From assembly GCA_964500505.1 (NCBI GenBank), contig CAZCNN010000001.1, positions 131,826-195,825 of the forward strand: a stretch of 64,000 bases of DNA, given 5' to 3'. Positions 1 through 52,261 of this stretch are shown here, piece after piece (position 1 is the stretch's first letter; each line of letters starts with the position of its first letter). The stretch is from an uncultured Bdellovibrionales bacterium (GTDB lineage: Bacteria > Patescibacteriota > Minisyncoccia > Moranbacterales > UBA1568). Position numbers and translations under genes: made by a program. Under the pieces are notes generated by a model. It had not been told where the DNA came from, ran no database searches, and saw only the letters and a list, made by a program, of their open reading frames with translations.

Positions 1-945
1 ACGAACGGGCACCGTAAGAGTATCAGATGGTTCTACATCGGCGCGACCCTCAAATGGGAGGTCCACTTCTTGCACCGTTCGATACGGTACGACATGCACC
101 TCTGCTTTGGGGAGAAAGAGAAATATCGCCACACCGATGAGTGACAAAAGTGAAATGCCTCCAAGTATGGCAAAAATTCGACCAGCCTTGGGCGACGTCA
201 CGGGGACGCGAGGTGCGGATGAGGGGGCCACTTCGGCCAACTTGGGCTCTGACTCATTTCTCGGTACACCGCCTTGAGTAAAAAAATTGCGGAGGCGAGC
301 TTCTCGGACAGTTTGAGTATCCTCGCGATTCGCCACACGTTCACTTGGGGTCGGAGGCACGACAGGCATCGAGCGCTCAATCGGGAGTACTATCTGTGGT
401 CGGAGACCCTGCGGAGCGGGTTTCGCTTGCATACTCGGCGCACCATCAAAGCGCTTAGAATTGAGACTCGGTGGCCGTTCGGGTGTAGCATTGCGGATAC
501 GGAGTGTCCGCGTGGCTGGCGCCACCGGTGCGCGAGGTGGCACACTCATCGGAGGTTTGGTCCCCCCTCCATAAAAATCACTACTTCCGATATCCTGAGA
601 TCGGAGCCCACCGAACGTGGGCTTGATGGTAGAAAGAGGCGCAGGTGTCACTTCCGGGGTGAGTTCGATATGCTCTGCAGCGCGTGAAAAATCGTCCGTA
701 TAGCGCTCGGCCGTGAGCCCAGCCTTCTCAGCGAGGAGCATCCCAGCCTCGTCTTGGGTCACGATCACGATGCGTTTGCCAAGCTTTTCTGCTTCACGTT
801 GAAAGAGTCGCAAGTTGACAATACTCTGAAGGACTAGCGCACGCTTGGGAAAGACAAAGTAATTCTCCTCGGATGATGAGCGACGCAATCGCCCAATCAC
901 CGAGATTATTTCTTCGTCGTTTTCGATATAAAATGTCTGAGGCAT
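1..945 (-). CDS. Partial hypothetical membrane protein (C-terminus runs off the window): about 90-aa N-terminal domain, Pro/Arg-rich linker, one TM segment (IFAILGGISLLSLIGVAIFLFL), then an extracytoplasmic part. It sits immediately downstream of ftsA where ftsZ would be expected, but it is not FtsZ.
   Basis: I scanned the plus strand in frame 1-3 for TTA/CTA/TCA and found none from position 1 to 945, so the minus frame is open to the window edge. ATG (cat) at 943-945 with AGGA about 8 nt upstream. No recognisable catalytic motifs. Confidence 0.45.
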   Translation of the reverse strand, partial: MPQTFYIENDEEIISVIGRLRRSSSEENYFVFPKRALVLQSIVNLRLFQREAEKLGKRIVIVTQDEAGMLLAEKAGLTAERYTDDFSRAAEHIELTPEVTPAPLSTIKPTFGGLRSQDIGSSDFYGGGTKPPMSVPPRAPVAPATRTLRIRNATPERPPSLNSKRFDGAPSMQAKPAPQGLRPQIVLPIERSMPVVPPTPSERVANREDTQTVREARLRNFFTQGGVPRNESEPKLAEVAPSSAPRVPVTSPKAGRIFAILGGISLLSLIGVAIFLFLPKAEVHVVPYRTVQEVDLPFEGRADVEPSDTLTVPVR

Positions 946-9339: not shown

Positions 9340-11301
9340 TTACCCAAAAAACCCAGCCACCTGAGTCACCAAGACCAGGGCTGCGAGAGCAATAGCGATA
9401 GCGATAGTAGCATAGGTCACGATCTTCTTGCCTGTTTCTGCCTTGCCTTCATCTCCTCCAGCCGTGAGATACATGAAGCCACCGATAACAAGCATGATGA
9501 TCGCGATGATGCCGACGATGGAGAGGAGGAAGCTTAAGACCTTAGAGGCTATCTCAGTAAAGGTTTGGGCTTCTTCGACGACTTGGGTTACTTCTATCCA
9601 GCCTAAAAGTTCTCCAATTTCTTTGAGGAAGGCAGGAGCAGCGATAGCGAGAGCGAGACCGACTACCGAAGCAGTGATAGCCACTTTGGCTTGAGAGACT
9701 CGTGATTCATTCCCGGCCGAGAGGATATACATGACCGCTCCTACGATAATCATGATGATAGAGAGGACGACGATGATACTTTGGAGCGTTGAGAGGACGG
9801 CAGTTAGCACGCTGTCTAGGGAGTTGTACTTGAGGGGGTTGAAGTAGCCTACTCCAGGAGAAGGGAGGGCGAGTGGGGCACAACAAGAGAGTCCGGTATC
9901 ACCACAGGTGCCAGGGGCAGGCTTGTATTTATCAGGTGCACACCCTCCTGAAACACAGGTATTGGGTGATTGGCAGGTGCCGTCGCCACCAGGGGAACTG
10001 GGTGATCCTGGTGACGGTGATCCAGGTGGGAGGGGTGGAGGCGGGGTATTGTTACCTTCTACCAAGACAGTAACTCCTCTTTTCGGACCACTGCCCTTTG
10101 ACTTGGTAGGGTCTTGACAAAACAGAATATATTCCGTACTCACCTGAGGAGAAACAACCAATGATCCTTTCTGCGTACCACTGGCTGTTGATGGACTGGC
10201 CAGTGGCTCTCCACTCATATTCCGATTATCCCACAGTGTACAACCAAAAAAAGCTTCGTGTTTAAACTCCCAAACAAGCGTAACAGATTGGCCGGGGTAG
10301 ATCTGTTGAGGTGGGGCTGGCGAGGCAAAGAATTTGACGATAGTAGTAAAGTATCCAACCTTCACCAAAGCTCCCTTGATCTGCGCATTCGGATGAGAGC
10401 CGGTCTCAGTAGCTACTCCACTACTATCGAGACACCGCAGATTATAATACCCGGTCTGGGTCGGCCATCCTTCAATACTCCCATTCACAGAGACATCTTG
10501 CCAGTCAGACCAATTTGGATCGTAATCCGCTTTCATCTGACAACTCACTGCTCCTGGTGCCTCCCACGAAATCTCCGTGGTGTTTCCCAGCTCTATCTCA
10601 TCAGGATTAGCATCTATATCGATGGGAATATTAGGAGAAGAAGGGGTGCCATTCGAATCCTGACATACACTGTTAAGCCCATCTGGGTTGTATACATAGC
10701 CACTTTTACACCGAAATTCACATTTTTGATTCGTATCCGTTTCAGAATAGGTCCATGCGACACTACCCGTTACATTATCCGTATCATTAGGATAAACTTC
10801 GACATTATCCCCATATGGCATTTGCCCGGTACAGGAGAAATTCCCTCCTCCTACTACCGTAATATTGACCACTGGAGAGGCTGACGTATAGGTAGATAAG
10901 TCGCTACTGACATATCCACAGCGAAATTCATAGATAGTGTTTTGGGTAGGGGTGTAAGAAAATACTTTTTTCGTCAACTCATCATGGAACTCAGGGGCTG
11001 AAGTAGCGCGGATTATCTCTGAATATCCGCTACTATCCGAGATAACACAGGCTAAAGGCTGATTAGAAAGGTTACTTGGCGTGCTGGAGACATGATATAT
11101 GATCCTAATAGTCTCCCCCTTATTAATGGTTGCCGTTGATGGCACCACCCCTTTCGTATCATCCCAACGATCCATGTAAATAACCCAGCCATCAGTCGCA
11201 AGAGATACGGGTGAAGTCAGTCCAAAACTCATGATGAGTCCCATGATGCCTCCGAGGAAGAGGGTTCGAAGATGGGTGTGGGTACATGGGGTGGGTGACA
11301 T
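9340..11301 (-). CDS. Large secreted/surface protein: signal peptide, roughly 400-aa extracellular region, Pro-rich linker, Cys-knot, two tandem TrbC/VirB2-like (T4SS-pilin-like) 2-TM modules (paralog A)
   Basis: Probable start MSPTPCTHTHLRTLFLGGIMGLIMSFGLTSPVSLA (ATG at 11299-11301). C-terminus has two repeated modules, IVGAVMYILSAGNESRVSQAKVAITASVVGLALAIAAP and VIGGFMYLTAGGDEGKAETGKKIVTYATIAIAIALAAL. Linker PPPPLPPGSPSPGSPSSPGG. Paralogous to the gene at 28455-30410. Confidence 0.7.
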   Translation of the reverse strand: MSPTPCTHTHLRTLFLGGIMGLIMSFGLTSPVSLATDGWVIYMDRWDDTKGVVPSTATINKGETIRIIYHVSSTPSNLSNQPLACVISDSSGYSEIIRATSAPEFHDELTKKVFSYTPTQNTIYEFRCGYVSSDLSTYTSASPVVNITVVGGGNFSCTGQMPYGDNVEVYPNDTDNVTGSVAWTYSETDTNQKCEFRCKSGYVYNPDGLNSVCQDSNGTPSSPNIPIDIDANPDEIELGNTTEISWEAPGAVSCQMKADYDPNWSDWQDVSVNGSIEGWPTQTGYYNLRCLDSSGVATETGSHPNAQIKGALVKVGYFTTIVKFFASPAPPQQIYPGQSVTLVWEFKHEAFFGCTLWDNRNMSGEPLASPSTASGTQKGSLVVSPQVSTEYILFCQDPTKSKGSGPKRGVTVLVEGNNTPPPPLPPGSPSPGSPSSPGGDGTCQSPNTCVSGGCAPDKYKPAPGTCGDTGLSCCAPLALPSPGVGYFNPLKYNSLDSVLTAVLSTLQSIIVVLSIIMIIVGAVMYILSAGNESRVSQAKVAITASVVGLALAIAAPAFLKEIGELLGWIEVTQVVEEAQTFTEIASKVLSFLLSIVGIIAIIMLVIGGFMYLTAGGDEGKAETGKKIVTYATIAIAIALAALVLVTQVAGFFG

Positions 11302-11326
11302 AGAAGAATGCTCCAAGTGAATTAAA

Positions 11327-12526
11327 TTATGATGTGTACGTATGTGTGGCCTCGGGATGAACCGTAGTATCATGAAGGAAGCAAGTTTCAAAGAGTGCGA
11401 CGAAGAGGACGATGGCCACGAGGAAGAAAATACTCTGCACTGGGAAGACAGCGAGCATCAGTGCTGAGAGGAGTGCGGCCAGGATATTAGCGACGGGCCG
11501 AGCGGTCCGGAAAAACGCAATGATATCCATGTCATCAGGACCAATCTGCTTGTAAAAGTACGAGTCACGAAGGATCTCGATACCCGCGATACCGACCCGG
11601 GTCATAAAGAGGGCCGTCCCCCACACCACGATGTCACCCGGCGCGAGAAATGGCAGGATAAAGGTGGCTGCGGCTGCGATGGCAATACTCCCGATGAGCA
11701 TCTCTTTCTCTCCGAAATAGCGATCAGCCAACCTCCCGAGTGGGTACTGGAGGAGGACAAACGGGAGGAGCATGACGGTAAAGATGATCCCAATCTCACT
11801 CCAGGCAAAACCACTCTCACGGAGATAGAGAGGAGTGTAGACAATCATCAGGGCATAAAAGAACTCAAGCGCGAGCGATACGTGGTAGATTCGGGACAGA
11901 TTCCGCGAAGCGAGCATCTTGCCGAACGTCGCCCGAAATCGAATTTTCTTCTGAATGGTCCGATTATCCAACCGAAAACCGACCAACGTGGCAATGAAAA
12001 TGATGGTATAGCCAATCACCAAGGCCAAAAAGATCCCGCTGTAATCATAGGATTCAAGCGTTTTCACCGAAAGAACTGGAGCAATGAGGAGCCCCGCGTT
12101 CATGATAGTGAGGTAAAGACCCCGGATACTTCCCGACACCTTATCCTCCGAAAAGCTCTCAAGGAGAATATCGAGTGTCACCCAGGTCACATTGGTCGCG
12201 ATAAGGAGAAGGAGTGCTGCCCCAAGCGAAATGTAGGCCGAGGTCGCCGACGCGAGAACCGCAGAAGCGCAGATCGAGAGACCGAGTGAGAGATAGAGGG
12301 CGCGAGCCCGTCCGATAATCCGAATCAGGGGCTGGAGATAGAAGAGACTTCCCAAGACGACGACGTAGGCAAGGAGGTAAAAAACACTAACATTGTCACT
12401 CCCTGATACCTCTGCAAAAAAAGTCGAAAGGATGTAAATAAAAAAAGCGTCGAGAAAACCGAACACGAACGATACGGCACTCACGAAGCGAACTTTTTTC
12501 TTGTTGAGATTTTCTTTGTGCGGCAT
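11327..12526 (-). CDS. MFS-type transporter
   Basis: About 12 predicted TM helices in a 6+6 layout over 399 aa. Confidence 0.65.
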   Translation of the reverse strand: MPHKENLNKKKVRFVSAVSFVFGFLDAFFIYILSTFFAEVSGSDNVSVFYLLAYVVVLGSLFYLQPLIRIIGRARALYLSLGLSICASAVLASATSAYISLGAALLLLIATNVTWVTLDILLESFSEDKVSGSIRGLYLTIMNAGLLIAPVLSVKTLESYDYSGIFLALVIGYTIIFIATLVGFRLDNRTIQKKIRFRATFGKMLASRNLSRIYHVSLALEFFYALMIVYTPLYLRESGFAWSEIGIIFTVMLLPFVLLQYPLGRLADRYFGEKEMLIGSIAIAAAATFILPFLAPGDIVVWGTALFMTRVGIAGIEILRDSYFYKQIGPDDMDIIAFFRTARPVANILAALLSALMLAVFPVQSIFFLVAIVLFVALFETCFLHDTTVHPEATHTYTS

Positions 12527-21947: not shown

Positions 21948-22422
21948 ACGTAATTGAGAGTTCATTCACTTCCTCGACGTGATTCTCGAGGACCGAGTCT
22001 CCTTCACCAAAAAGAAACCGGGTCCGAAACTTCTTGCCGGCGAGAAACACTGGTATCCAGTGGATATCGTCTGGCCACATGGCATCATAGGGAATAGCAT
22101 CGGTAGTAAACCACTGGGGGCGCATCTCCTCAGTCTCACGAGGCTCACCTTCCCAAGCAGTGACTCGGTAGACATAAACCTCGAGGATATTGCCCCGGTC
22201 GCGGGCAAATTCAAACTCGTGCATCCCTACGGCCTCCATCTCGGTAATAGTCACACCGGATTCTTCCAGCGTTTCACGCTTGGCTCCCTCTTCGATACTT
22301 TCGCCCTCTTCAACTTTCCCACCGAACCCATTCCATCGACCAGCACCAAAACCACGCTTCTTCATCCCAAGGAGGATGCGACCGTCGCGGACAATGAGGC
22401 AAAGAGTAAGAATGGTTCTCAT
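21946..22422 (-). CDS. Nudix hydrolase
   Basis: Nudix box GGKVEEGESIEEGAKRETLEESGV. Confidence 0.8.
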   Translation of the reverse strand: MRTILTLCLIVRDGRILLGMKKRGFGAGRWNGFGGKVEEGESIEEGAKRETLEESGVTITEMEAVGMHEFEFARDRGNILEVYVYRVTAWEGEPRETEEMRPQWFTTDAIPYDAMWPDDIHWIPVFLAGKKFRTRFLFGEGDSVLENHVEEVNELSIT

Positions 22423-23795
22423 AATTTGGATTCAGCTACTACCGGCCGATACATGAGATTCTCAGCGACATAGGGATTGTCTTTCTTCCAGATGACGTTG
22501 TCAATGAAGTAATGATGGATATTGAGAAACACCGTAAAGAAAAAGAAATAAAGCGAGGTCCCAAAGACAGTGGTCGGGTAGCTGAGCCACGCGGGTGCTG
22601 TCCCCCGAGCAACCCAGAGGTCGAGCCAGATCGGGATCAGAGCAAAGAAGAGTGCTCCCAGGAAATAGGCGGAACCAAAAAACGTCACTATCCCCCATCG
22701 GCCTCTTGCCTGCCGATGATACAGGAGCGTGAGCATCCCGACGGAGAGACAGAGGAGTGCGCCCGTGACCCAGCCAATCGTCGTGAATCCTGAGGAGAGT
22801 GTCATGATATAACGATCAAGGGTAAGAGTCGCCGATTCCTTGAGTGACAGACCGATTAACACCGCCGGCAAGAGGAGGAGGAAAGCACCGCCCCAGAGGT
22901 TGTAGCGACTCGCTGTATTCCGCGTCACAGGAGTGTCTCTCTCTTCACGGATGGCCTGATTACGTCTCGCAGCAAAAACAAAGAGGAGATACTGGAGCGA
23001 ATGAAAGAGTGGGATGATATAGAAAAAGTACGGGTGAGAGAGGGCGGGAATGTACCAGAGGTAGATCGAAACGAGTGCGATCACTGCCGAGACTGGTGGG
23101 GTCACTCGCGAAATGATGTACTTCACGATAAACATGGCAAGAAGGAGGTTACTGGCGACAAAGAGCACCTGCTCCGACAGCTTGAGCCACAGAGGCGGGA
23201 GCGTCCAAGCAGTATAGGGCACCTGATAAAACATATTGTGTGCCCCAGAGATATTGGCCGAGAAGAATGACAAGGCCCACAGGAGGTAGAGTGGGAGGAG
23301 GATTGCGGTACGCTCGAGACGACTATAGTACACTTTTTTCGTGGCTGAGAGGACGACCACACAGCCAAATATCTGCTTGATATAATGCCAACCGACAAAA
23401 AAGAAGAGAGCATTCACGAGGTAGCCCATGAGCATGATACTCCCCTGCGACTTGGCGTAAAGAAAATACCCAATAAGGAGTACCGGGACAGCGAGCCCCG
23501 CCCACCACATCTTGATCATAAATCTCCGTCCCGTTCGTAGCGATCCAAACGATTGGCGAGCATCGCCATACATGAGGAGATAGGAGGCAGCAAAGTGCGG
23601 GAAATTGATGAGAAACGCGGCGTAGTAGAGCGCGATGGACCAGGTAAAGATATCGGCACCTTTACTCACCGCCACTTGGAGTATGATATAGGCGATGATA
23701 GACACGCCTCCGACGAGCATGCTATCGAGAAAGGGTGAGACGAGTGACGTCTGACTCGGTGCAAACCAGCCCTGAACCATCCTTATTATGCGCAT
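22419..23795 (-). CDS. Polytopic integral membrane protein of unknown function (about 12 TM)
   Basis: Hydrophobic throughout; sits between two Nudix genes. Confidence 0.55.
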   Translation of the reverse strand: MRIIRMVQGWFAPSQTSLVSPFLDSMLVGGVSIIAYIILQVAVSKGADIFTWSIALYYAAFLINFPHFAASYLLMYGDARQSFGSLRTGRRFMIKMWWAGLAVPVLLIGYFLYAKSQGSIMLMGYLVNALFFFVGWHYIKQIFGCVVVLSATKKVYYSRLERTAILLPLYLLWALSFFSANISGAHNMFYQVPYTAWTLPPLWLKLSEQVLFVASNLLLAMFIVKYIISRVTPPVSAVIALVSIYLWYIPALSHPYFFYIIPLFHSLQYLLFVFAARRNQAIREERDTPVTRNTASRYNLWGGAFLLLLPAVLIGLSLKESATLTLDRYIMTLSSGFTTIGWVTGALLCLSVGMLTLLYHRQARGRWGIVTFFGSAYFLGALFFALIPIWLDLWVARGTAPAWLSYPTTVFGTSLYFFFFTVFLNIHHYFIDNVIWKKDNPYVAENLMYRPVVAESKL

Positions 23796-27891: not shown

Positions 27892-28095
27892 TTAGAGTCC
27901 GTAAGCAGTCGAGAGCGTGCTCAAGAAAAACGGGACTGCAAAAACAAGACCAATAAGAGGGAGTACAAACGTGACGAGCGTCGCAATCATCGTCCACAAG
28001 AAATACTTGCGCGTCTTCTCAACAGACTGATAGATCTGCTCGAGCCGTTCATCCTGCGCCTCCAGTTTTTTCTTGAGTTCTGGGTCCATACCCAT
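27892..28095 (-). CDS. Small membrane protein (67 aa, 2 TM), hypothetical
   Basis: Charged N-terminus then two hydrophobic helices; tightly packed after the zinc-ribbon ORF. Confidence 0.35.
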   Translation of the reverse strand: MGMDPELKKKLEAQDERLEQIYQSVEKTRKYFLWTMIATLVTFVLPLIGLVFAVPFFLSTLSTAYGL

Positions 28096-28155: not shown

Positions 28156-28434
28156 CTACTCCATCTGTGCCTCTCCGCGCTTGCGCGGAGCCACTTCACT
28201 CACTTGTGGTGAACGACGCAAACCATCACCCATGTGTCGCACGGGGTCAGATTCAGCAAACTGTACTGCTGGGGCATCCGGTACCCCTTGGTACTGATAT
28301 CGCAGGTGCCACTCGTCACGACACGGAAGCGAGCACAGTCGAACTTCGTACAAGTCGTGATAGCCATCAGCCCAATCAAATGTCCCCTTACACTGAGGAC
28401 ACACAGCGATATATACAGCCATCTTGTCCTCCAT
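28156..28434 (-). CDS. Small zinc-ribbon protein (CPQCKG...CSLPC), hypothetical
   Basis: Four Cys in CxxC...CxxxC spacing. Start placed at M9 (28434) to clear the upstream stop; an ATG at 28422 is an alternative start. Confidence 0.4.
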   Translation of the reverse strand: MEDKMAVYIAVCPQCKGTFDWADGYHDLYEVRLCSLPCRDEWHLRYQYQGVPDAPAVQFAESDPVRHMGDGLRRSPQVSEVAPRKRGEAQME

Positions 28435-28454: not shown

Positions 28455-30410
28455 TCACCCCCCAAAGAACTTCGCCACCTGAGAGATGATAACGAGAGCT
28501 GCAAGAGCCACCGTGATACCAATAAGGGAGTATTTGACGATAGATTTACCGGTATTGATCCGGTCTTCATCTCCAGTGGCCGTGAGGTACATGAGGCCTC
28601 CAATCACGAGCATGATAATCCCGATGATACCAATGACTGAGAGGAGGAAGTTCAGGATCCCTGTAAGAATCTCGGTGATACTCTTGGCACTGTCTGCTGG
28701 GCTACCATCAACCGCTCCCCAGCCTAAGATAGCGCCAATCTCTTTGAGGAATGACGGTGCAGCGAGAGCGAGAGCAAGGCCAATGAGAGCGGCGGTAATA
28801 ATGAGTTTGCCGGTAGAGAGCTTGGAGTCATTGCCTCCGGCCGTCATGTAAACTATGGAGCCAATCACAATCATGATAAGAGAGAGGATGACGATAATCG
28901 CTTGGAGGAAGCCTAAGAGAGAGGTAAGAATCTCATCGACGGTATTAAAGGCTAAGGGGTTACTAATGGGGATAGTGTAGAGGACGGCTTCAGAGCCAGT
29001 TCTCGCAAGGCAACAGACTCCCGTACCATCTTTGGTCCGACCGACCACTTGTTCGGTGGCGTCGTTACAGCTCGCTTTGGGGGTGCCTACATCACATTTG
29101 CTGTTGTCGGTGGGAGGATTGCCAGGAGCTGGTGAGCCTGGTGGCAGAGGAGGTGGAGTATCACCAGAACCAATTGTAACCTGGACAGTCTCTTTAGGAC
29201 CAAATCCATAAGCGCCGTCCTGCCGTTGACAAAAGAATATATAGGTTGTTGTTGCTTTTGGCGCTACAACCCGACTCCCAGTCTGGGGACTATTATCCTT
29301 CGCTACAAATAAAACAGCATTATTGCCAAGTTGTCCATCATTGCGTGTGTTCTCCTCCAACCTACAATTAGTGCCGTTTTTGATACTCCAGAAGAGAGTG
29401 GTCGTCTCCCCTACTGTTTGGAGAGATAAAGGCTCAGCATAAAAATCCAAAATTTGTGGATAAAAACCAACATTTACATAAGCAGAAAAGTGAGGGCCAT
29501 AATTACTCGTAATAGCCCCTACGCCCTTACTATCAACACACAGCATGTTATACGCCCCAGATGCAGTAGGCTGAGAGGTCATACTACCATTGACTGGGAC
29601 ATCGACCCAAGATGCGAGATTTGAATCTTGATCTGCCTTTATTTGACAACTCACTGCCCCCTGAGTTATCCAAGACAACTTGGTTGTTTCACCTGGTTCT
29701 ATGTATTGTGGATTGGTAGTAAGAGATATGTAGCTTACCTCGGAGACTGATGGAGGAGGACCAGAAGAAGCCTCTATGCAAGCAAAATTACCTAGTTGAT
29801 CCTGACCCGGGACATGATTGGGACCACAATGCCACTCACACTTACGAGCAGTATCCGCCACACTATATATCCAAGACGTATCGGCTAGGACATCGATACT
29901 ATCAGTAGGATATATCTCTATACCACTCGTTACTAGCCATGGTTCGAGTCCCGTACATTTGCCATTGGCGATGACATTAACCGTTACCTCGTCATACAAA
30001 AGGTTCTCTTCGGCAAGATACGCATACCCGCAACCAAGGCGATACGTGACCTGTCCAAGTGATGTTGGGATAAAAATACGTGGCTGAGTATGAATCGGAT
30101 GAAATTGATCCTGGATATCGGGTACCATCGAATCTGGATCAAAATACAGAGTCGCAGTTGCTACCTGTCGATAGCCATCACTGCTAGTAAAAACACATTG
30201 CTTTGGCTCGGTATCACGAGGGAACTGGTCAGCTTGGATGAATAACTCCACTTCTTCGCCAAGTCCAATTGTAGCCGGACTCTCTAAAACAAGATCAACA
30301 GACTCATTTGCTGCTTGCGCTGAAGTGATGAGACCGAGACTCATGGTAAAACCTAGGCCACTCACTAATAGCAAATTTCTAAAATACGCCTTGCATGAGA
30401 TAAATGGCAT
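28455..30410 (-). CDS. Large secreted/surface protein with C-terminal tandem TrbC/VirB2-like 2-TM modules (paralog B)
   Basis: Signal peptide MPFISCKAYFRNLLLVSGLGFTMSLGLITSAQA, shared domain (SCQIKADQDSNLASWVDVPVNGS, cf. SCQMKADYDPNWSDWQDVSVNGS in paralog A), linker TPPPLPPGSPAPGNPPT, Cys-knot, then IVIGSIVYMTAGGNDSKLSTGKLIITAALIGLALALAAP and VIGGLMYLTATGDEDRINTGKSIVKYSLIGITVALAAL. Confidence 0.7.
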   Translation of the reverse strand: MPFISCKAYFRNLLLVSGLGFTMSLGLITSAQAANESVDLVLESPATIGLGEEVELFIQADQFPRDTEPKQCVFTSSDGYRQVATATLYFDPDSMVPDIQDQFHPIHTQPRIFIPTSLGQVTYRLGCGYAYLAEENLLYDEVTVNVIANGKCTGLEPWLVTSGIEIYPTDSIDVLADTSWIYSVADTARKCEWHCGPNHVPGQDQLGNFACIEASSGPPPSVSEVSYISLTTNPQYIEPGETTKLSWITQGAVSCQIKADQDSNLASWVDVPVNGSMTSQPTASGAYNMLCVDSKGVGAITSNYGPHFSAYVNVGFYPQILDFYAEPLSLQTVGETTTLFWSIKNGTNCRLEENTRNDGQLGNNAVLFVAKDNSPQTGSRVVAPKATTTYIFFCQRQDGAYGFGPKETVQVTIGSGDTPPPLPPGSPAPGNPPTDNSKCDVGTPKASCNDATEQVVGRTKDGTGVCCLARTGSEAVLYTIPISNPLAFNTVDEILTSLLGFLQAIIVILSLIMIVIGSIVYMTAGGNDSKLSTGKLIITAALIGLALALAAPSFLKEIGAILGWGAVDGSPADSAKSITEILTGILNFLLSVIGIIGIIMLVIGGLMYLTATGDEDRINTGKSIVKYSLIGITVALAALVIISQVAKFFGG

Positions 30411-30519
30411 AAGTGCACTCTTCTTTATATTTCGTTTGTTTAATTATAGCACATACGAGTAACGCTCACCAGAAAAAACACACCCTTTAAACTTCCTTGC
30501 CATGGGTGATATAGTTTGA

Positions 30520-31452
30520 TTAAAATCCAACCAATTGCACTTCTTCTTGGAGTTTCACGCCAAGTTCGTCGCGGACACGGGTCTTGACGAGGCTCGCCAG
30601 CATGACGATATCAGTTGCCGAAGCGGTCCCAGTATTTACGAGATAGTTCGGGTGTTTGGGACTCACCTGAGCACCTCCGATGGTCTTGCCCCGTAGTCCC
30701 ACGTGATCGATGAGCCAGCCTGCTGGGAGCTTGCCATCCTTCGAGGAGTTGCCGGTATCCTTTTCAAATTCTTTGAGTAAGTGTTCGTCATTCACCAACG
30801 GATTCATAAAAAATGAACCAGCGCACTTGGCATCCTGAGGGTGCTTGGACTCACGAGTGGCCATGGTTTCCTTGATAGTACGCTCGAGGAGTACCCGATC
30901 GCCCCCCTCACGGAGTGAGAGCTCAGCCGAGAGGACCACGAGTGACGGATGCTTCTTAAAATGGCTTGTTCGGTAGGAAAATTCACATTCGGCCTGCGTA
31001 TATTCATGCACCATGCCCGTCTTCTGATCAAGCGCTTTGACCGACGTCACATACTGCCCTATTTCTGTCCCAAAGGCACCCGCATTGCCCCGGACCGCCC
31101 CGCCAAGTGACCCAGGGATACCAGCGAGTTTCTCGATTCCTGAAAGTCCAGCGTCTTTAGCAGACCAGACAACATTCATAAGCGGGACACCGGCTCCGAC
31201 CATGATTTTTACTCCCTTTACCTTGATACCCCCAGGTACAATTCGGGCAACAATTCCCGGGAAGCCTTTGTCTGCAAAAAGAACGTTGCTTCCTCCTCCG
31301 AGGACCCAAAGCGGGAGCTTGTGTTTTTCAGCATAGTCAAATACCTCCGAGAGTTCAATGGCCCCCGAGGCTTCGGCATAGTAGCGTGCTTCTCCTCCGA
31401 CCTTAAACGTGGTAAATGGAGCGAGTGGCACATGTTCACGAAGCGCAATCAT
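30520..31452 (-). CDS. murB: UDP-N-acetylenolpyruvoylglucosamine reductase
   Basis: MIALREHVPLAPFTTFKVGGEARYY FAD-binding N-terminus. Confidence 0.9.
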   Translation of the reverse strand: MIALREHVPLAPFTTFKVGGEARYYAEASGAIELSEVFDYAEKHKLPLWVLGGGSNVLFADKGFPGIVARIVPGGIKVKGVKIMVGAGVPLMNVVWSAKDAGLSGIEKLAGIPGSLGGAVRGNAGAFGTEIGQYVTSVKALDQKTGMVHEYTQAECEFSYRTSHFKKHPSLVVLSAELSLREGGDRVLLERTIKETMATRESKHPQDAKCAGSFFMNPLVNDEHLLKEFEKDTGNSSKDGKLPAGWLIDHVGLRGKTIGGAQVSPKHPNYLVNTGTASATDIVMLASLVKTRVRDELGVKLQEEVQLVGF

Positions 31453-48722: not shown

Positions 48723-48791
48723 CCAGTTTTCTCTCTTTATCTTTTGTTTTTCAACTTTTCCCTGTATCTCCACCTATCTCCCATCTCTTTC

Positions 48792-48826
48792 GGCTCCCGA
48801 AATCGCGGTCGCGAATATACGAGCCA
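48792..48826. repeat. Repeat copy 1: GGCTCCCGAAATCGCGGTCGCGAATATACGAGCC
   Basis: Direct repeat of 49401-49434, with the central GGTC replaced by GACC (inverted core) and a C/G difference near the 3' end. Confidence 0.7.
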
Positions 48827-48836
48827 TCATGCATGT

Positions 48837-49382
48837 ATGAGACTTGGACCAACACAGCAAAAGATACTTCTCCTGCTTCTTGGTGGACTCGCCCTTGGTT
48901 GTTCTTTCTCACCAAAAACCAGTTTTCGTGTTGTCAAACTCGTGCACCGGGGATGGCGGGACATCAATCAGAAGAATCTGAATCGATCTTTACGACTCCT
49001 TTATACCCAACAGCTGATCACTGATCGAAGGAACCCTGATGGATCTATCTCTCTCATTCTGACGCCAGAAGGAAAGCGCCAAGCCACACTCGGACAACTC
49101 CTCGGTCTCAAAATTAAAAAACCAAAGCGTTGGGACCAGCTCTGGCGCATCGTGCTTTTTGATATTCCAGAAAAACACAAAAAGTTTCGCGATATTTTTC
49201 GCTCTCACCTCAAAGCCATCGGCTTCCATGAACTCCAGCACAGTGTCTTTGTTTTTCCCTTCCCTTGTGAAAAAGAGATACTATCATTGGTCGAACTCTA
49301 TCATGCCACACCGTACGTTCGCTTCATTACTGCCAAACATATCGATAACGAGTCGACGCTCAAAAAGAAATTTTCTTTATAG
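48837..49382 (+). CDS. Winged-helix regulator-like protein with a PaaX C-terminal-like block (WDQLWRIVLFDIPEKHKKFRDIFRSHLKAIGFHELQHSVFVFP)
   Basis: Start at ATG 48837; resembles the PaaX-family C-terminal motif (WDGxW..V.F.VPE..R..R..LR..L...GF..L...VW). Confidence 0.5.
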   Translation: MRLGPTQQKILLLLLGGLALGCSFSPKTSFRVVKLVHRGWRDINQKNLNRSLRLLYTQQLITDRRNPDGSISLILTPEGKRQATLGQLLGLKIKKPKRWDQLWRIVLFDIPEKHKKFRDIFRSHLKAIGFHELQHSVFVFPFPCEKEILSLVELYHATPYVRFITAKHIDNESTLKKKFSL

Positions 49383-49400: not shown

Positions 49401-49434
49401 GGCTCCCGAAATCGCGACCGCGAATATAGGAGCC
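49401..49434. repeat. Repeat copy 2: GGCTCCCGAAATCGCGACCGCGAATATAGGAGCC
   Basis: See copy 1. Confidence 0.7.
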
Positions 49435-49495
49435 ACTGGTATAAAATTGGTGCGATAGGGTTCGATAGTAGGATAGATGGAAAAATATAATTTGG

Positions 49496-50671: not shown

Positions 50672-52261
50672 TCAGTCTGGCGTTTCGTCGTCGGGGTCGA
50701 GCGGGGTCATGACAGTGCCGTTACCGAGCACGGCCGTCTTCCCGTCACTCACCTGGTCCAGGCGATAACCTTCACGACCGACTTCGACCAACTTGACGCC
50801 GTCGCACCACCAGCCGTAGCCGGGTGCTTCGCCACCATGAAGGAGATCAAAGTCGAACCCTATGCCAACACCACAGACCCTGAGGGGGTCCGAGATGCCA
50901 AGGCGCAGATTGGCCGTCTGAGAGAACGGGAGTTCACTGAAGAACCCTACCCGTGCCCAGAACGTCGCGAACTTCGCGTCGTAGATGTCCTGGTGGACAC
51001 CGGCCTGAAACACCACGCTGTGGCGCTCCAGTTCCGACGCGTCAGTCGGTTGCAAGAAGTTGCTCGCCGTGGCCCGCACTGAGGTCGGGATACCCACGCT
51101 AGCGTAGATGCGCGTTTCCGGCATCCACTTCTTGCCCGCCAAACGATTCGAGTAATCGTTGTAAGCCACCGAAGCGCCAACAAAATCGATTTCCCGTTCG
51201 TTGCGGTACTGTGCCTGGCTGAATGCCTGGTGCATGTGGCCAAAGAGCAACTTGCCCTCTGCCGTCCAGCCCTTGTCGCTGATCCGCTCAACAGCAGGAC
51301 CAAAGGCGAGTGATTGACCGTGAGCCCTTCCGGACCCAAAGTTCACGCGCACATCCCACCATGAGTTCTGGAGGCCGACACCCCACCCCGTGTAGCCGTC
51401 CCCAACCCGCTTGATGCAGTACAGGGCAGCCGTCACAAAGGTTGAGTGAGACTCGTTGCCGTTGTCGTTCGGCTCATGCTCTTGTCCGAACACGAGCTTG
51501 GGATCAAGGAGGCAACGCCTCTCTGCAACCACCGTCTTCGGCGGGATGACGAGCTCGCCGATTTCTTCCTCTTCCACCACCTTTTTGCGAGGTGGTATGA
51601 CGAGCTCGCCGATTTCTTCCTCTGCCGTCCGCGTTGTGATTGCAGGCGGGAGTGGCGTACCAACGACCCAGTTGTTGCAATTACGTACCCAGTGGAAGAC
51701 CTTGCCACTCTTGAGGATGTAGGTCCTCGCGAGCACCACGGTCTTCTCGCTCCAATCGGCCAAAACGTTCTTCTCGAACGACACCTTGCCGTCCTTACAG
51801 AACGCCACTGCCTGGAACCGATCACCGGGCTTGAAGAAGGTGTATGCTGGATGTGGTTGAGCCGACACCAGTCCGCGGAGTTCGGATTTCTCCTCGTCCG
51901 TGAGACCCATCTGGGTCCACGCTTCTTCATTCAGCACCGCTTCGGTCTTGTTGCCGCAACCATAGAGCGGTGCGCCCCCGACCTTCTTCCAGCGAAATTC
52001 GCCGGCTTCGGTCGAGGCAACTGCCGACACGGACCGCGTACGGACACCAGCCGGGAGGATATAGCTCTTCCCAGCGATGATGCCGTTGCAATTCGTGATA
52101 CGACCAGCGACCTTGTTGGCGTCGCACACCGCTTGGGCATGCTTGCCGAAAACCGCTGACAGCGTGTCTCCGCGCTCTGCCCGATACTCGGACTGAGTCG
52201 CGTGTGCACCACCCACTCCGGAGAGCAAAGCAGCGCACAGAGGAATCATGAGCCATTTCAT
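50672..52261 (-). CDS. Exported protein with an N-terminal LysM-like motif, a tandem 17-aa repeat and a beta-rich C-domain (island gene 2)
   Basis: Signal peptide MKWLMIPLCAALLSGVGGAHA; YRAERGDTLSAVF...SYILP resembles LysM; EEEIGELVIPP occurs twice; C-terminal about 270 aa has alternating hydrophobic/aromatic strands. Confidence 0.55.
   Translation of the reverse strand: MKWLMIPLCAALLSGVGGAHATQSEYRAERGDTLSAVFGKHAQAVCDANKVAGRITNCNGIIAGKSYILPAGVRTRSVSAVASTEAGEFRWKKVGGAPLYGCGNKTEAVLNEEAWTQMGLTDEEKSELRGLVSAQPHPAYTFFKPGDRFQAVAFCKDGKVSFEKNVLADWSEKTVVLARTYILKSGKVFHWVRNCNNWVVGTPLPPAITTRTAEEEIGELVIPPRKKVVEEEEIGELVIPPKTVVAERRCLLDPKLVFGQEHEPNDNGNESHSTFVTAALYCIKRVGDGYTGWGVGLQNSWWDVRVNFGSGRAHGQSLAFGPAVERISDKGWTAEGKLLFGHMHQAFSQAQYRNEREIDFVGASVAYNDYSNRLAGKKWMPETRIYASVGIPTSVRATASNFLQPTDASELERHSVVFQAGVHQDIYDAKFATFWARVGFFSELPFSQTANLRLGISDPLRVCGVGIGFDFDLLHGGEAPGYGWWCDGVKLVEVGREGYRLDQVSDGKTAVLGNGTVMTPLDPDDETPD
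51546..51647. repeat. Two tandem 51-nt repeat units inside island gene 2 (encode EEEIGELVIPPRKKVVE / EEEIGELVIPPKTVVAE)
   Basis: ATGACGAGCTCGCCGATTTCTTCCTCT occurs at 51546 and again at 51597. Confidence 0.7.

Follow-up and report, generated by a model that had tools for sequence, protein, structure and literature searches.

What kind of protein carries a large extracellular head on a pair of pilin modules, and how do related strains come by different heads at the same place in the chromosome? The question is raised by gene B, which lies on the minus strand of a 64,000-nt stretch (the window, to whose positions all coordinates refer) of contig CAZCNN010000001.1, assembly GCA_964500505.1. An earlier note on this DNA had described B as a surface protein with pilin modules and a variable head, built like a second protein in the window, A, and followed by two small open reading frames (ORFs) as possible helpers; the gene and all motifs quoted there were found in place within the window (Table 1). 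In what follows, loci of relatives carry L numbers and proteins of relatives P numbers. Our analysis indicates that B is probably a Sec-exported, strain-variable surface protein of an ultra-small bacterium of the Moranbacteria, whose heads are swapped on a double-pilin anchor, whose gene behaves as a cassette and to which the two small ORFs are untied.

The C-terminus of B contains two stretches of the T4SS_pilin family PF18895 (T4SS, type IV secretion system; E 8.2e-16, 58.3 bits against a gathering cut-off of 26.6), which confirms the pilin modules proposed before, and the same annotation is common to A and all relatives. In each module, a hairpin of two hydrophobic helices is present both in the hydropathy profile (hydrophobic segments at residues 490-527, 531-556, 577-614 and 622-651) and in a structural model of the anchor computed from a 30-member alignment (predicted local distance difference test, pLDDT, 81.7 overall and >90 in the helices). 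This model begins with a beta-hairpin in the Cys knot (residues 23-39 of the model) and continues with the two helical hairpins, formed by helices 61-93 and 98-132 in module 1 (pLDDT >90) and by helices 148-180 and 185-220 in module 2. A local hidden Markov model (HMM) recovered module 1 with an independent E-value of 2.4e-38, while the best PF18895 stretch of module 2 spans residues 575-643. With the TrbC/VirB2 family PF04956, B gave no match at E<=0.1, but two members of its family, P0138 (34.9 bits) and P0149 (35.6 bits), exceed the cut-off of 27.9. Against NCBIfam NF045849, the 'pilin-like conjugal transfer protein' of a Mycoplasma integrative and conjugative element, B reached E 2.6e-7 in module 2, which is below the cut-off. 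Besides, the anchor profile retrieved nothing below E 0.3 from the sequences of the PDB; fold searches, which do not discriminate short hairpins, returned generic helical hairpins only and no tie to solved pilins; and in 72,556 plasmids searched by tblastn the pilin modules had no match, so that, at this sensitivity, known conjugative plasmids offer no direct link. There is no LPXTG motif in B, whose C-terminus reads ...ISQVAKFFGG.

A profile of the Cys knot and the double pilin was searched against 1.84 billion representative proteins. The 25,622 matches at E<=1e-3 amount to essentially all T4SS_pilin proteins, and in 314 representative clusters, at E<=1e-30, the match runs through the whole double-pilin unit without a break. 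We delimit the Patescibacterial double-pilin family as NPL, pilin, APSFLKEI..LGW and pilin in one continuous match of ∼220 positions; B belongs to it, with its NPL motif ∼170 aa from the C-terminus. Family members are 197-1005 aa long, a Cys-rich region before NPL is found across them, and NP[LIV] stands ∼170 aa from the C-terminus in 138 of the 150 top matches. The N-terminal extension before this motif is <100 aa in 21 of these 138 proteins, 100-200 aa in 83, 200-300 aa in 15 and >=300 aa in 19. Extension lengths form a continuum, and the majority of the family is headless or short-extended. At 40-50% identity, the 30-member alignment retains invariant Gly, Pro and Tyr residues and the conserved APSFLKEI..LGW between the modules. 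At the long end of the range, P0256 (L040:662-3679; 1005 aa) has Laminin_G_3, Sulfatase and SGSH_C domains ahead of the double-pilin unit, and this lectin-plus-sulfatase protein shows that the unit serves generally for display or anchoring. In the same locus, a gene ∼8 kb from P0256 shows weak 23S_rRNA_IVP/bAvd matches, a family that resembles accessory proteins of diversity-generating retroelements (DGRs).

Aligned end to end, A and B are 37% identical (E 2e-113). The common architecture claimed for them is thus borne out by a whole-length match, and the similarity goes far beyond low-complexity resemblance. Identity amounts to 32% in the signal peptide, 27% in head domain d1, 36% in d2, 48% in d3, 34% in d4, 68% in the linker, 22% in the Cys knot, 55% in pilin module 1 and 58% in pilin module 2. 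The N-terminal ∼250 aa, described earlier as divergent, are indeed the most divergent part, yet they are still homologous and their Cys positions are conserved. In DNA, identity between A and B varies from 33 to 78% in 20-codon windows throughout, so that no recent A-B gene conversion has taken place in this genome. The window contains no direct repeats >=30 nt that touch A or B and, according to a local HMM of their four modules, no pilin modules besides theirs. The mechanically called ORF of A extends to 11391 (9340-11391, minus strand), where a TTG start overlaps the end of the gene for a major facilitator superfamily (MFS) transporter by 65 nt; since the orthologues P0002 and P0003 use the ATG at 11301 (MSPTPCTH...), this codon, which is preceded by GGAGCA, is almost certainly the true start.

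That heads vary on a conserved anchor, as the earlier note had supposed, is supported chiefly by relatives, the heads of A and B being themselves homologous. A 5.8-billion-protein index holds only eight close homologues of B, and mosaics are among them. P0002, from the site between the MFS gene and scpA in L009, joins the signal peptide of A (97% identity) to a B-like head (52-62%) and to A's linker, knot and pilins (95-100%). In the reciprocal mosaic P0003, encoded upstream of rpsF-ssb-rpsR in L001, A supplies the signal peptide and head (90-99%) and B the knot and pilins (94-100%). Three further proteins, P0004-P0006, combine unrelated heads of 600-700 aa with a B anchor that is 94-97% identical; unrelated heads also occur in L022/L023, a headless version in L004, and the enzyme-like extension in P0256. 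Crossovers in the DNA were located at two places, the end of the sequence encoding the signal peptide and ∼40 nt of that encoding the Pro-linker. The P0003 gene switches within ∼40 nt of the Pro-linker segment, and it is at the Pro-linker, too, that the L009 and L022 genes match the window again.

Two chromosomal sites occur in several states. Between murB and Zn88 (the first of the small ORFs), the 651-aa gene is found in the window and in L011-L013 and L017. In L022/L023 the same place is taken by a 938-aa gene with another head, and nucleotide identity resumes at ∼29088, just past the linker; L030/L031 are empty, with the murB stop codon (TGA), 35 nt and then Zn88. As murB directly precedes Zn88 in the latter two, gene B is a cassette that strains can do without and that brings a promoter-like element of its own. 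This extended -10-like element occurs just once in the window, against 0.01 expected at random; it is a consensus match only and thus a putative promoter. Identical or near-identical copies of gene B are present in other assemblies, while an exact-sequence look-up of the protein matched no record. Compared with the L012 copy, B has 34 nt differences yet just 4 aa differences, which indicates that the gene is under strong purifying selection and functional. Of the 938-aa variants, the one in L022 (L022:2870-5694, GCA_020049755.1) was called as two genes (802 and 139 aa) and that in L023, an ENA contig, is intact; the split reflects either a frameshift or an error of assembly within pilin module 1.

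The site between the MFS gene and scpA is still more varied in content. It may hold gene A, P0002 (L009), a 603-aa protein with a third head on anchor A together with a 592-aa protein whose head stands on a single 'PCTLCH' pilin (L006), or a headless 240-aa anchor A together with a 519-aa head-plus-single-pilin protein (L004). The heads of the 519-aa protein of L004 and the 603-aa protein of L006 are related, yet they stand on a single and a double anchor, respectively, which implies that heads move between anchor types. This second anchor type (L004:2576-4135, L006:10618-12396) bears large heads on one pilin module, which has 'PCTLCH(I/L)V' ahead of it and a conserved C-terminal tail of ∼50 aa behind it; a PCTLCH single-pilin core like that of L004/L006 is also encoded at L007:6630-7802. 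DGRs, phase-variation repeats and a DNA repeat shared by A and B were considered as sources of the diversity and rejected, as no such repeats exist in the window.

As to the head itself, we used a full-length AlphaFold2 model of B, computed from a four-sequence alignment, for secondary structure alone (mean pLDDT 50), and in this low-confidence model the head is consistently all-beta. Domains d3 and d4 form an internal repeat (E 9e-6) with the pattern 'xLxW...C...Y.x.C'. The equivalent of d2 in A scores 21.5 bits against Sushi (PF00084; cut-off 20.7), the only Pfam family matched by either head, and the best hit of the head among PDB sequences was an immunoglobulin (Ig)-domain protein at E 0.16 only. 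Tentatively, the A and B heads can be read as arrays of Cys-paired Ig-like or Sushi-like domains from otherwise undescribed families, a content typical of binding proteins, and the head most likely serves as a binding module for adhesion or for recognition of a host or substrate. Directly upstream of the P0003 gene, L001 encodes a 1442-aa surface protein (L001:2786-7114) with many 'LSW...C...TTYTLxC' Ig-like repeats; given that the same Ig-like repeat occurs in the heads, it is possibly a reservoir of head domains.

Table 1. Positions of gene B and its parts, of gene A and of the neighbouring small ORFs in the 64,000-nt window.
Feature	Residues	Positions	Strand	Remarks
Gene B, head/double-pilin fusion		28455..30410	-	intact 651-aa ORF, stop codon included
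Extended -10-like element TGTGCTATAAT (TGnTATAAT)		30443..30453	-	∼32 nt upstream of the B start, within the inserted cassette
Predicted signal peptide	B 1-34	30309..30410	-	K/R n-region, hydrophobic core LLLVSGLGFTMSLGLITSA, then AQA followed by AN
Predicted extracellular head	B 35-414	29169..30308	-	four predicted beta domains, d1-d4
Head domain d1	B 35-150			predicted beta domain
Head domain d2	B 151-222			predicted 4-Cys Sushi-like domain
Head domain d3	B 223-316			predicted Cys-paired Ig-like internal repeat
Head domain d4	B 317-414			predicted Cys-paired Ig-like internal repeat
Motif SCQIKADQD		29625-29651		in gene B
Pro-rich linker GDTPPPLPPGSPAPGNPPT		29109..29168	-	head/anchor recombination junction
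Linker motif TPPPLPPGSPAPGNPPT		29109-29159		in gene B
Cys knot	B 435-483	28962..29108	-	C439, C448, C466, C467; ends directly before the NPL motif
Pilin module 1	B 484-565	28716..28961	-	two transmembrane (TM) helices, loop AGGNDSK, then APSFLKEI..LGW
Motif VYMTAGGNDSK		28821-28853		in gene B
Pilin module 2	B 566-651	28458..28715	-	two TM helices, loop ATGDEDR
Motif LMYLTATGDEDR		28560-28595		in gene B
Gene A		9340..11301	-	B-like architecture, ∼653 aa; between the MFS transporter gene and scpA-scpB
Motif SCQMKADYD		10519-10545		in gene A; counterpart of SCQIKADQD in B
Zn88		28156..28422	-	88-aa CxxC...Cx3C protein; neighbour, outside the system
TM67		27892..28095	-	67-aa small membrane protein; neighbour, outside the system

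These features suggest the following mechanism. The signal peptide, recognised by hydropathy and by a helix at residues 8-19 of the full-length model and with a predicted cleavage site between AQA and AN, would direct Sec export of the head. Insertion of the two VirB2-like hairpins would follow, giving four TM helices whose two short loops face the cytoplasm while the N- and C-terminus are outside; the Pro-rich stalk together with a disulfide-bonded Cys knot would hold the binding head off the membrane. Both termini of VirB2-type pilins are located on the pilus exterior, as seen in F and T pili, and it is from this topology and the signal peptide that we infer the N-out/C-out arrangement of B. 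Homologous recombination would exchange whole heads between paralogs and strains, using the signal-peptide and Pro-linker DNA as crossover sites, at hot spots that include the murB-Zn88 site, the MFS-scpA site and the region upstream of rpsF. The architecture, the membership of the pilin family, the mosaics with their breakpoints, the presence or absence of the cassette, purifying selection and the independence of the small ORFs are directly seen in the data, whereas surface exposure, topology, binding function and the choice between a mere tether and entry into a pilus are inferred.

Several points weigh against this reading or limit it. The folds assigned to the head domains are tentative, given the low confidence of the full-length model, and the B head matches no Pfam family. 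Among the ∼20 larger ORFs of the window that were scanned, all of them housekeeping or envelope genes, there is no T4SS machinery gene. Moreover, the conservation of the anchor, with its invariant Gly, Pro and Tyr residues and APSFLKEI, far exceeds the needs of a passive TM tether, and headless double pilins terminate arrays of single pilins: in two lineages (L007; L037-L039), a headless 252-aa double pilin is the last gene after four single pilins. Anchor conservation and these array-closing versions suggest a role beyond tethering.

The same two facts also speak for a different reading, in which the double pilin is a polymerisation-competent minor or terminal pilin that is drawn out of the membrane by a VirB4-type T4SS encoded elsewhere in the genome and displays the head on the pilus or its tip. 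Topology would allow this, as a head at the N-terminus and a linker exposed between the modules would fit the geometry of a VirB2-type pilus lattice. VirB2-like pilins are widespread, being found in 1,948 Patescibacteria assemblies in arrays of 2-11 genes without any PrgB-like adhesin detected (Quinonero-Coronel et al. 2025, PMC12102498), and the pilin array in the T4SS cluster of Southlakia epibionticum, so far the only species examined in this respect, is essential (Wang et al. 2023, PMC10633639; review PMC12857230). On the other side, we found no VirB4, VirB6 or single-pilin genes among the scanned ORFs of the window, nor any VirB4 or VirB6 beside the arrays examined, and no T4SS ATPase was recognised beside the double-pilin-containing arrays of L037, L039 and L007. 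Both paralogs sit in housekeeping neighbourhoods, polymerisation of a covalent pilin dimer that carries a 45-kDa head may be sterically difficult, and the fold searches gave no structural tie to solved pilins. We therefore regard display on a pilus as a possibility worth keeping, albeit an unlikely one. A bolder extension, namely that head-bearing double pilins are the long-sought T4SS adhesins of Patescibacteria, the covalent dimer co-polymerising with or capping the small pilins so as to present a strain-specific recognition head on the pilus of a monoderm, and head exchange at the two junctions setting and shifting the host range of the epibiont, is slightly more doubtful still.

How does B relate to known systems? 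With the VirB2/TrbC/TraA pilins and PrgF of pCF10 it shares an ∼80-aa hairpin of two hydrophobic helices with a short polar, Gly-rich loop, and PrgF-type pilins have now been proposed for Gram-positive conjugation (bioRxiv 10.64898/2025.12.18.695078). Canonical T4SS pilins, however, stand alone as proteins of 70-130 aa and have their genes in T4SS clusters, whereas B, at 651 aa, has its modules in tandem behind a 480-aa N-terminal extension, which includes the Cys knot and the 380-aa head, and its gene lies alone among housekeeping genes. The VirB2-like arrays of Patescibacteria come closer, as they belong to the same phylum and Pfam family, consist of divergent paralogs and have been assigned proposed roles in host interaction and strain adaptation; as published (PMC10633639, PMC12102498), they are made of small pilins, with no mention of head fusions, a double-pilin unit or head-cassette exchange. 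PrgB and the thioester-domain adhesins resemble B in being large, extracellular, beta-rich binding proteins tied to monoderm T4SSs, but these adhesins have an LPXTG/sortase anchor and are encoded in the transfer operon, while B has four TM helices and lacks LPXTG. A conserved export and anchor part with a recombining exposed part is also typical of Neisseria pilE/pilS, the variable lipoproteins of Mycoplasma and the VirB2 paralogs of Bartonella and Anaplasma. In contrast to these systems, A and B showed no store of silent cassettes, no invertible promoter, no homopolymer tract and no DGR repeat, and the variation observed lies between strains, at a few full-length expression loci.

Alternatively, the head might be a surface-displayed catalytic or nutrient-scavenging module instead of an adhesin. 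P0256 with its Sulfatase and SGSH_C domains shows that the double-pilin unit can carry such a cargo, and bacteria of the candidate phyla radiation (CPR) are described as relying on scavenging. For A and B we consider this improbable, as neither head matches an enzyme family and the predicted Ig-like and Sushi-like beta domains with paired Cys are typical of binding modules.

Could the mosaics instead be chimeric metagenome assemblies, joined across the conserved anchor repeats? Anchors repeated at 89-99% nucleotide identity within populations are a classic cause of mis-joins, and L001 has masked N runs. Still, where heads differ at one site, the contigs have unique, collinear flanks on either side of them (L009, L006, L004, L022/L023), alleles recur in independent assemblies and sources, and the breakpoints match domain borders with reading frames intact, all of which makes this explanation very improbable.

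Turning to the neighbourhood, gene B is flanked by murB (30520-31452) on one side and by Zn88, TM67, hpf, secA and a NUDIX gene, all on the same strand, on the other, with murC-murG-ftsW-trmD located upstream. For the two small ORFs, a role as partner, chaperone or immunity component had been proposed. They are genuine genes and evolve under purifying selection (dN/dS ∼0.25 for Zn88 and 0.05-0.09 for TM67), though not quite in the form first described. The zinc-ribbon ORF, given as 28156-28434, is conserved as an 88-aa protein from the start at 28422, the upstream ATG being out of frame in relatives; TM67 contains one hydrophobic stretch of 36 residues, so that the two TM segments ascribed to it are merely possible. 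Zn88 is known from only 3 protein clusters of close relatives, at 73-99% identity and with all four Cys invariant; its 88-aa length and these Cys are retained even at 73-80% identity, and a metagenome scan with the Zn88 alignment retrieved one locus only, which was already among those examined. The TM67 family is much larger, with 704 protein clusters that, where named, derive from Moranbacteria/Moraniibacteriota.

What these genes accompany is the chromosomal site. The order murB-Zn88-TM67-hpf-secA exists without a pilin gene in L030/L031; a distant Moranbacterium has murB-TM65-hpf, with neither Zn88 nor a pilin gene (L032); TM65 stands beside ribosomal protein genes in another genome (L034); and neither small ORF is found next to paralog A or next to B-type-anchor genes at other loci (L001, L002). 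Their conservation in relatives, which the earlier note had made a test, is thus real and independent of the pilin-fusion gene. Zn88 does start 32 nt past the B stop on the same strand with no terminator-like site between them, the Zn88-TM67 order is repeated behind the 938-aa variant in L022/L023, and a weak TM67-like ORF (28% identity) lies within the L007 pilin array, but against pilin-free loci, the absence beside A and other B anchors, and 704 TM67 clusters versus 8 close relatives of B, we give a dedicated partner, chaperone or immunity role next to no credence. The tempting view of the adjacent ORFs as accessory factors is therefore to be corrected: Zn88 and TM67 belong to a conserved murB-hpf-secA neighbourhood and are functionally untied to B. 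The TM67-like ORF of L007 (L007:8630-8926, in a metagenome-assembled genome (MAG) labelled Moraniibacteriota) encodes 98 aa with a coiled-coil N-terminus and a Pro-containing hydrophobic stretch; this sole hint of a TM67-pilin link may be due to chance or to a distant TM67 paralog. Zn88 evolves much faster than its neighbours (73% identity to L030, versus 93% for MurB, 97% for TM67 and 98% for HPF) and is a cytoplasmic CxxC...Cx3C protein, specific to its lineage, whose tail is charged.

CPR bacteria, or Patescibacteria, are obligate epibionts whose choice of host is largely unexplained. The T4SS_pilin superfamily and the presence of pilins in Patescibacteria were already known; features that we found undescribed in the available literature are the tandem double-pilin display platform, its large swappable heads and the cassette behaviour at fixed sites. 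We found no description of head-pilin fusions in CPR in the literature searched, the coverage of which is incomplete, so that absence is unproven. The conserved double-pilin unit serves at the C-terminus as a general platform on which very different extracellular modules can be carried (Ig-like ones and, once, a lectin with a sulfatase). Heads that are exchanged at defined junctions, in genes gained and lost at fixed sites, are concrete and testable candidates for host recognition, and the anchor profile offers a simple sequence handle to catalogue such candidates across metagenomes.

The relatives compared here are MAGs labelled 'Candidatus Moraniibacteriota' or, in the case of several third party annotation (TPA) assemblies, 'uncultured Bdellovibrionales'. 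The gene content, i.e. the TM67 family, the T4SS_pilin expansion and small housekeeping operons, fits Moranbacteria/Patescibacteria. The Bdellovibrionales labels (L001, L002, L003-L006, L008, L009) look wrong in view of gene content and of the nearest named relatives, which are Moranbacteria (CPR).

Finally, we noted three unrelated features of the window. Two 35-nt direct repeats (91% identical; 48792-48826 and 49401-49435) flank a 212-aa ORF (48744-49382) within a glycosyltransferase/O-antigen-ligase region. Two 36-nt repeats, 51 nt apart and 92% identical, lie at 51540-51626 within a 529-aa ORF (50672-52261) without a match in Pfam. A 458-aa ORF (22419-23795) with no significant Pfam family is located between two NUDIX genes and ddl, and its position is conserved in the relatives L011, L030 and L031.

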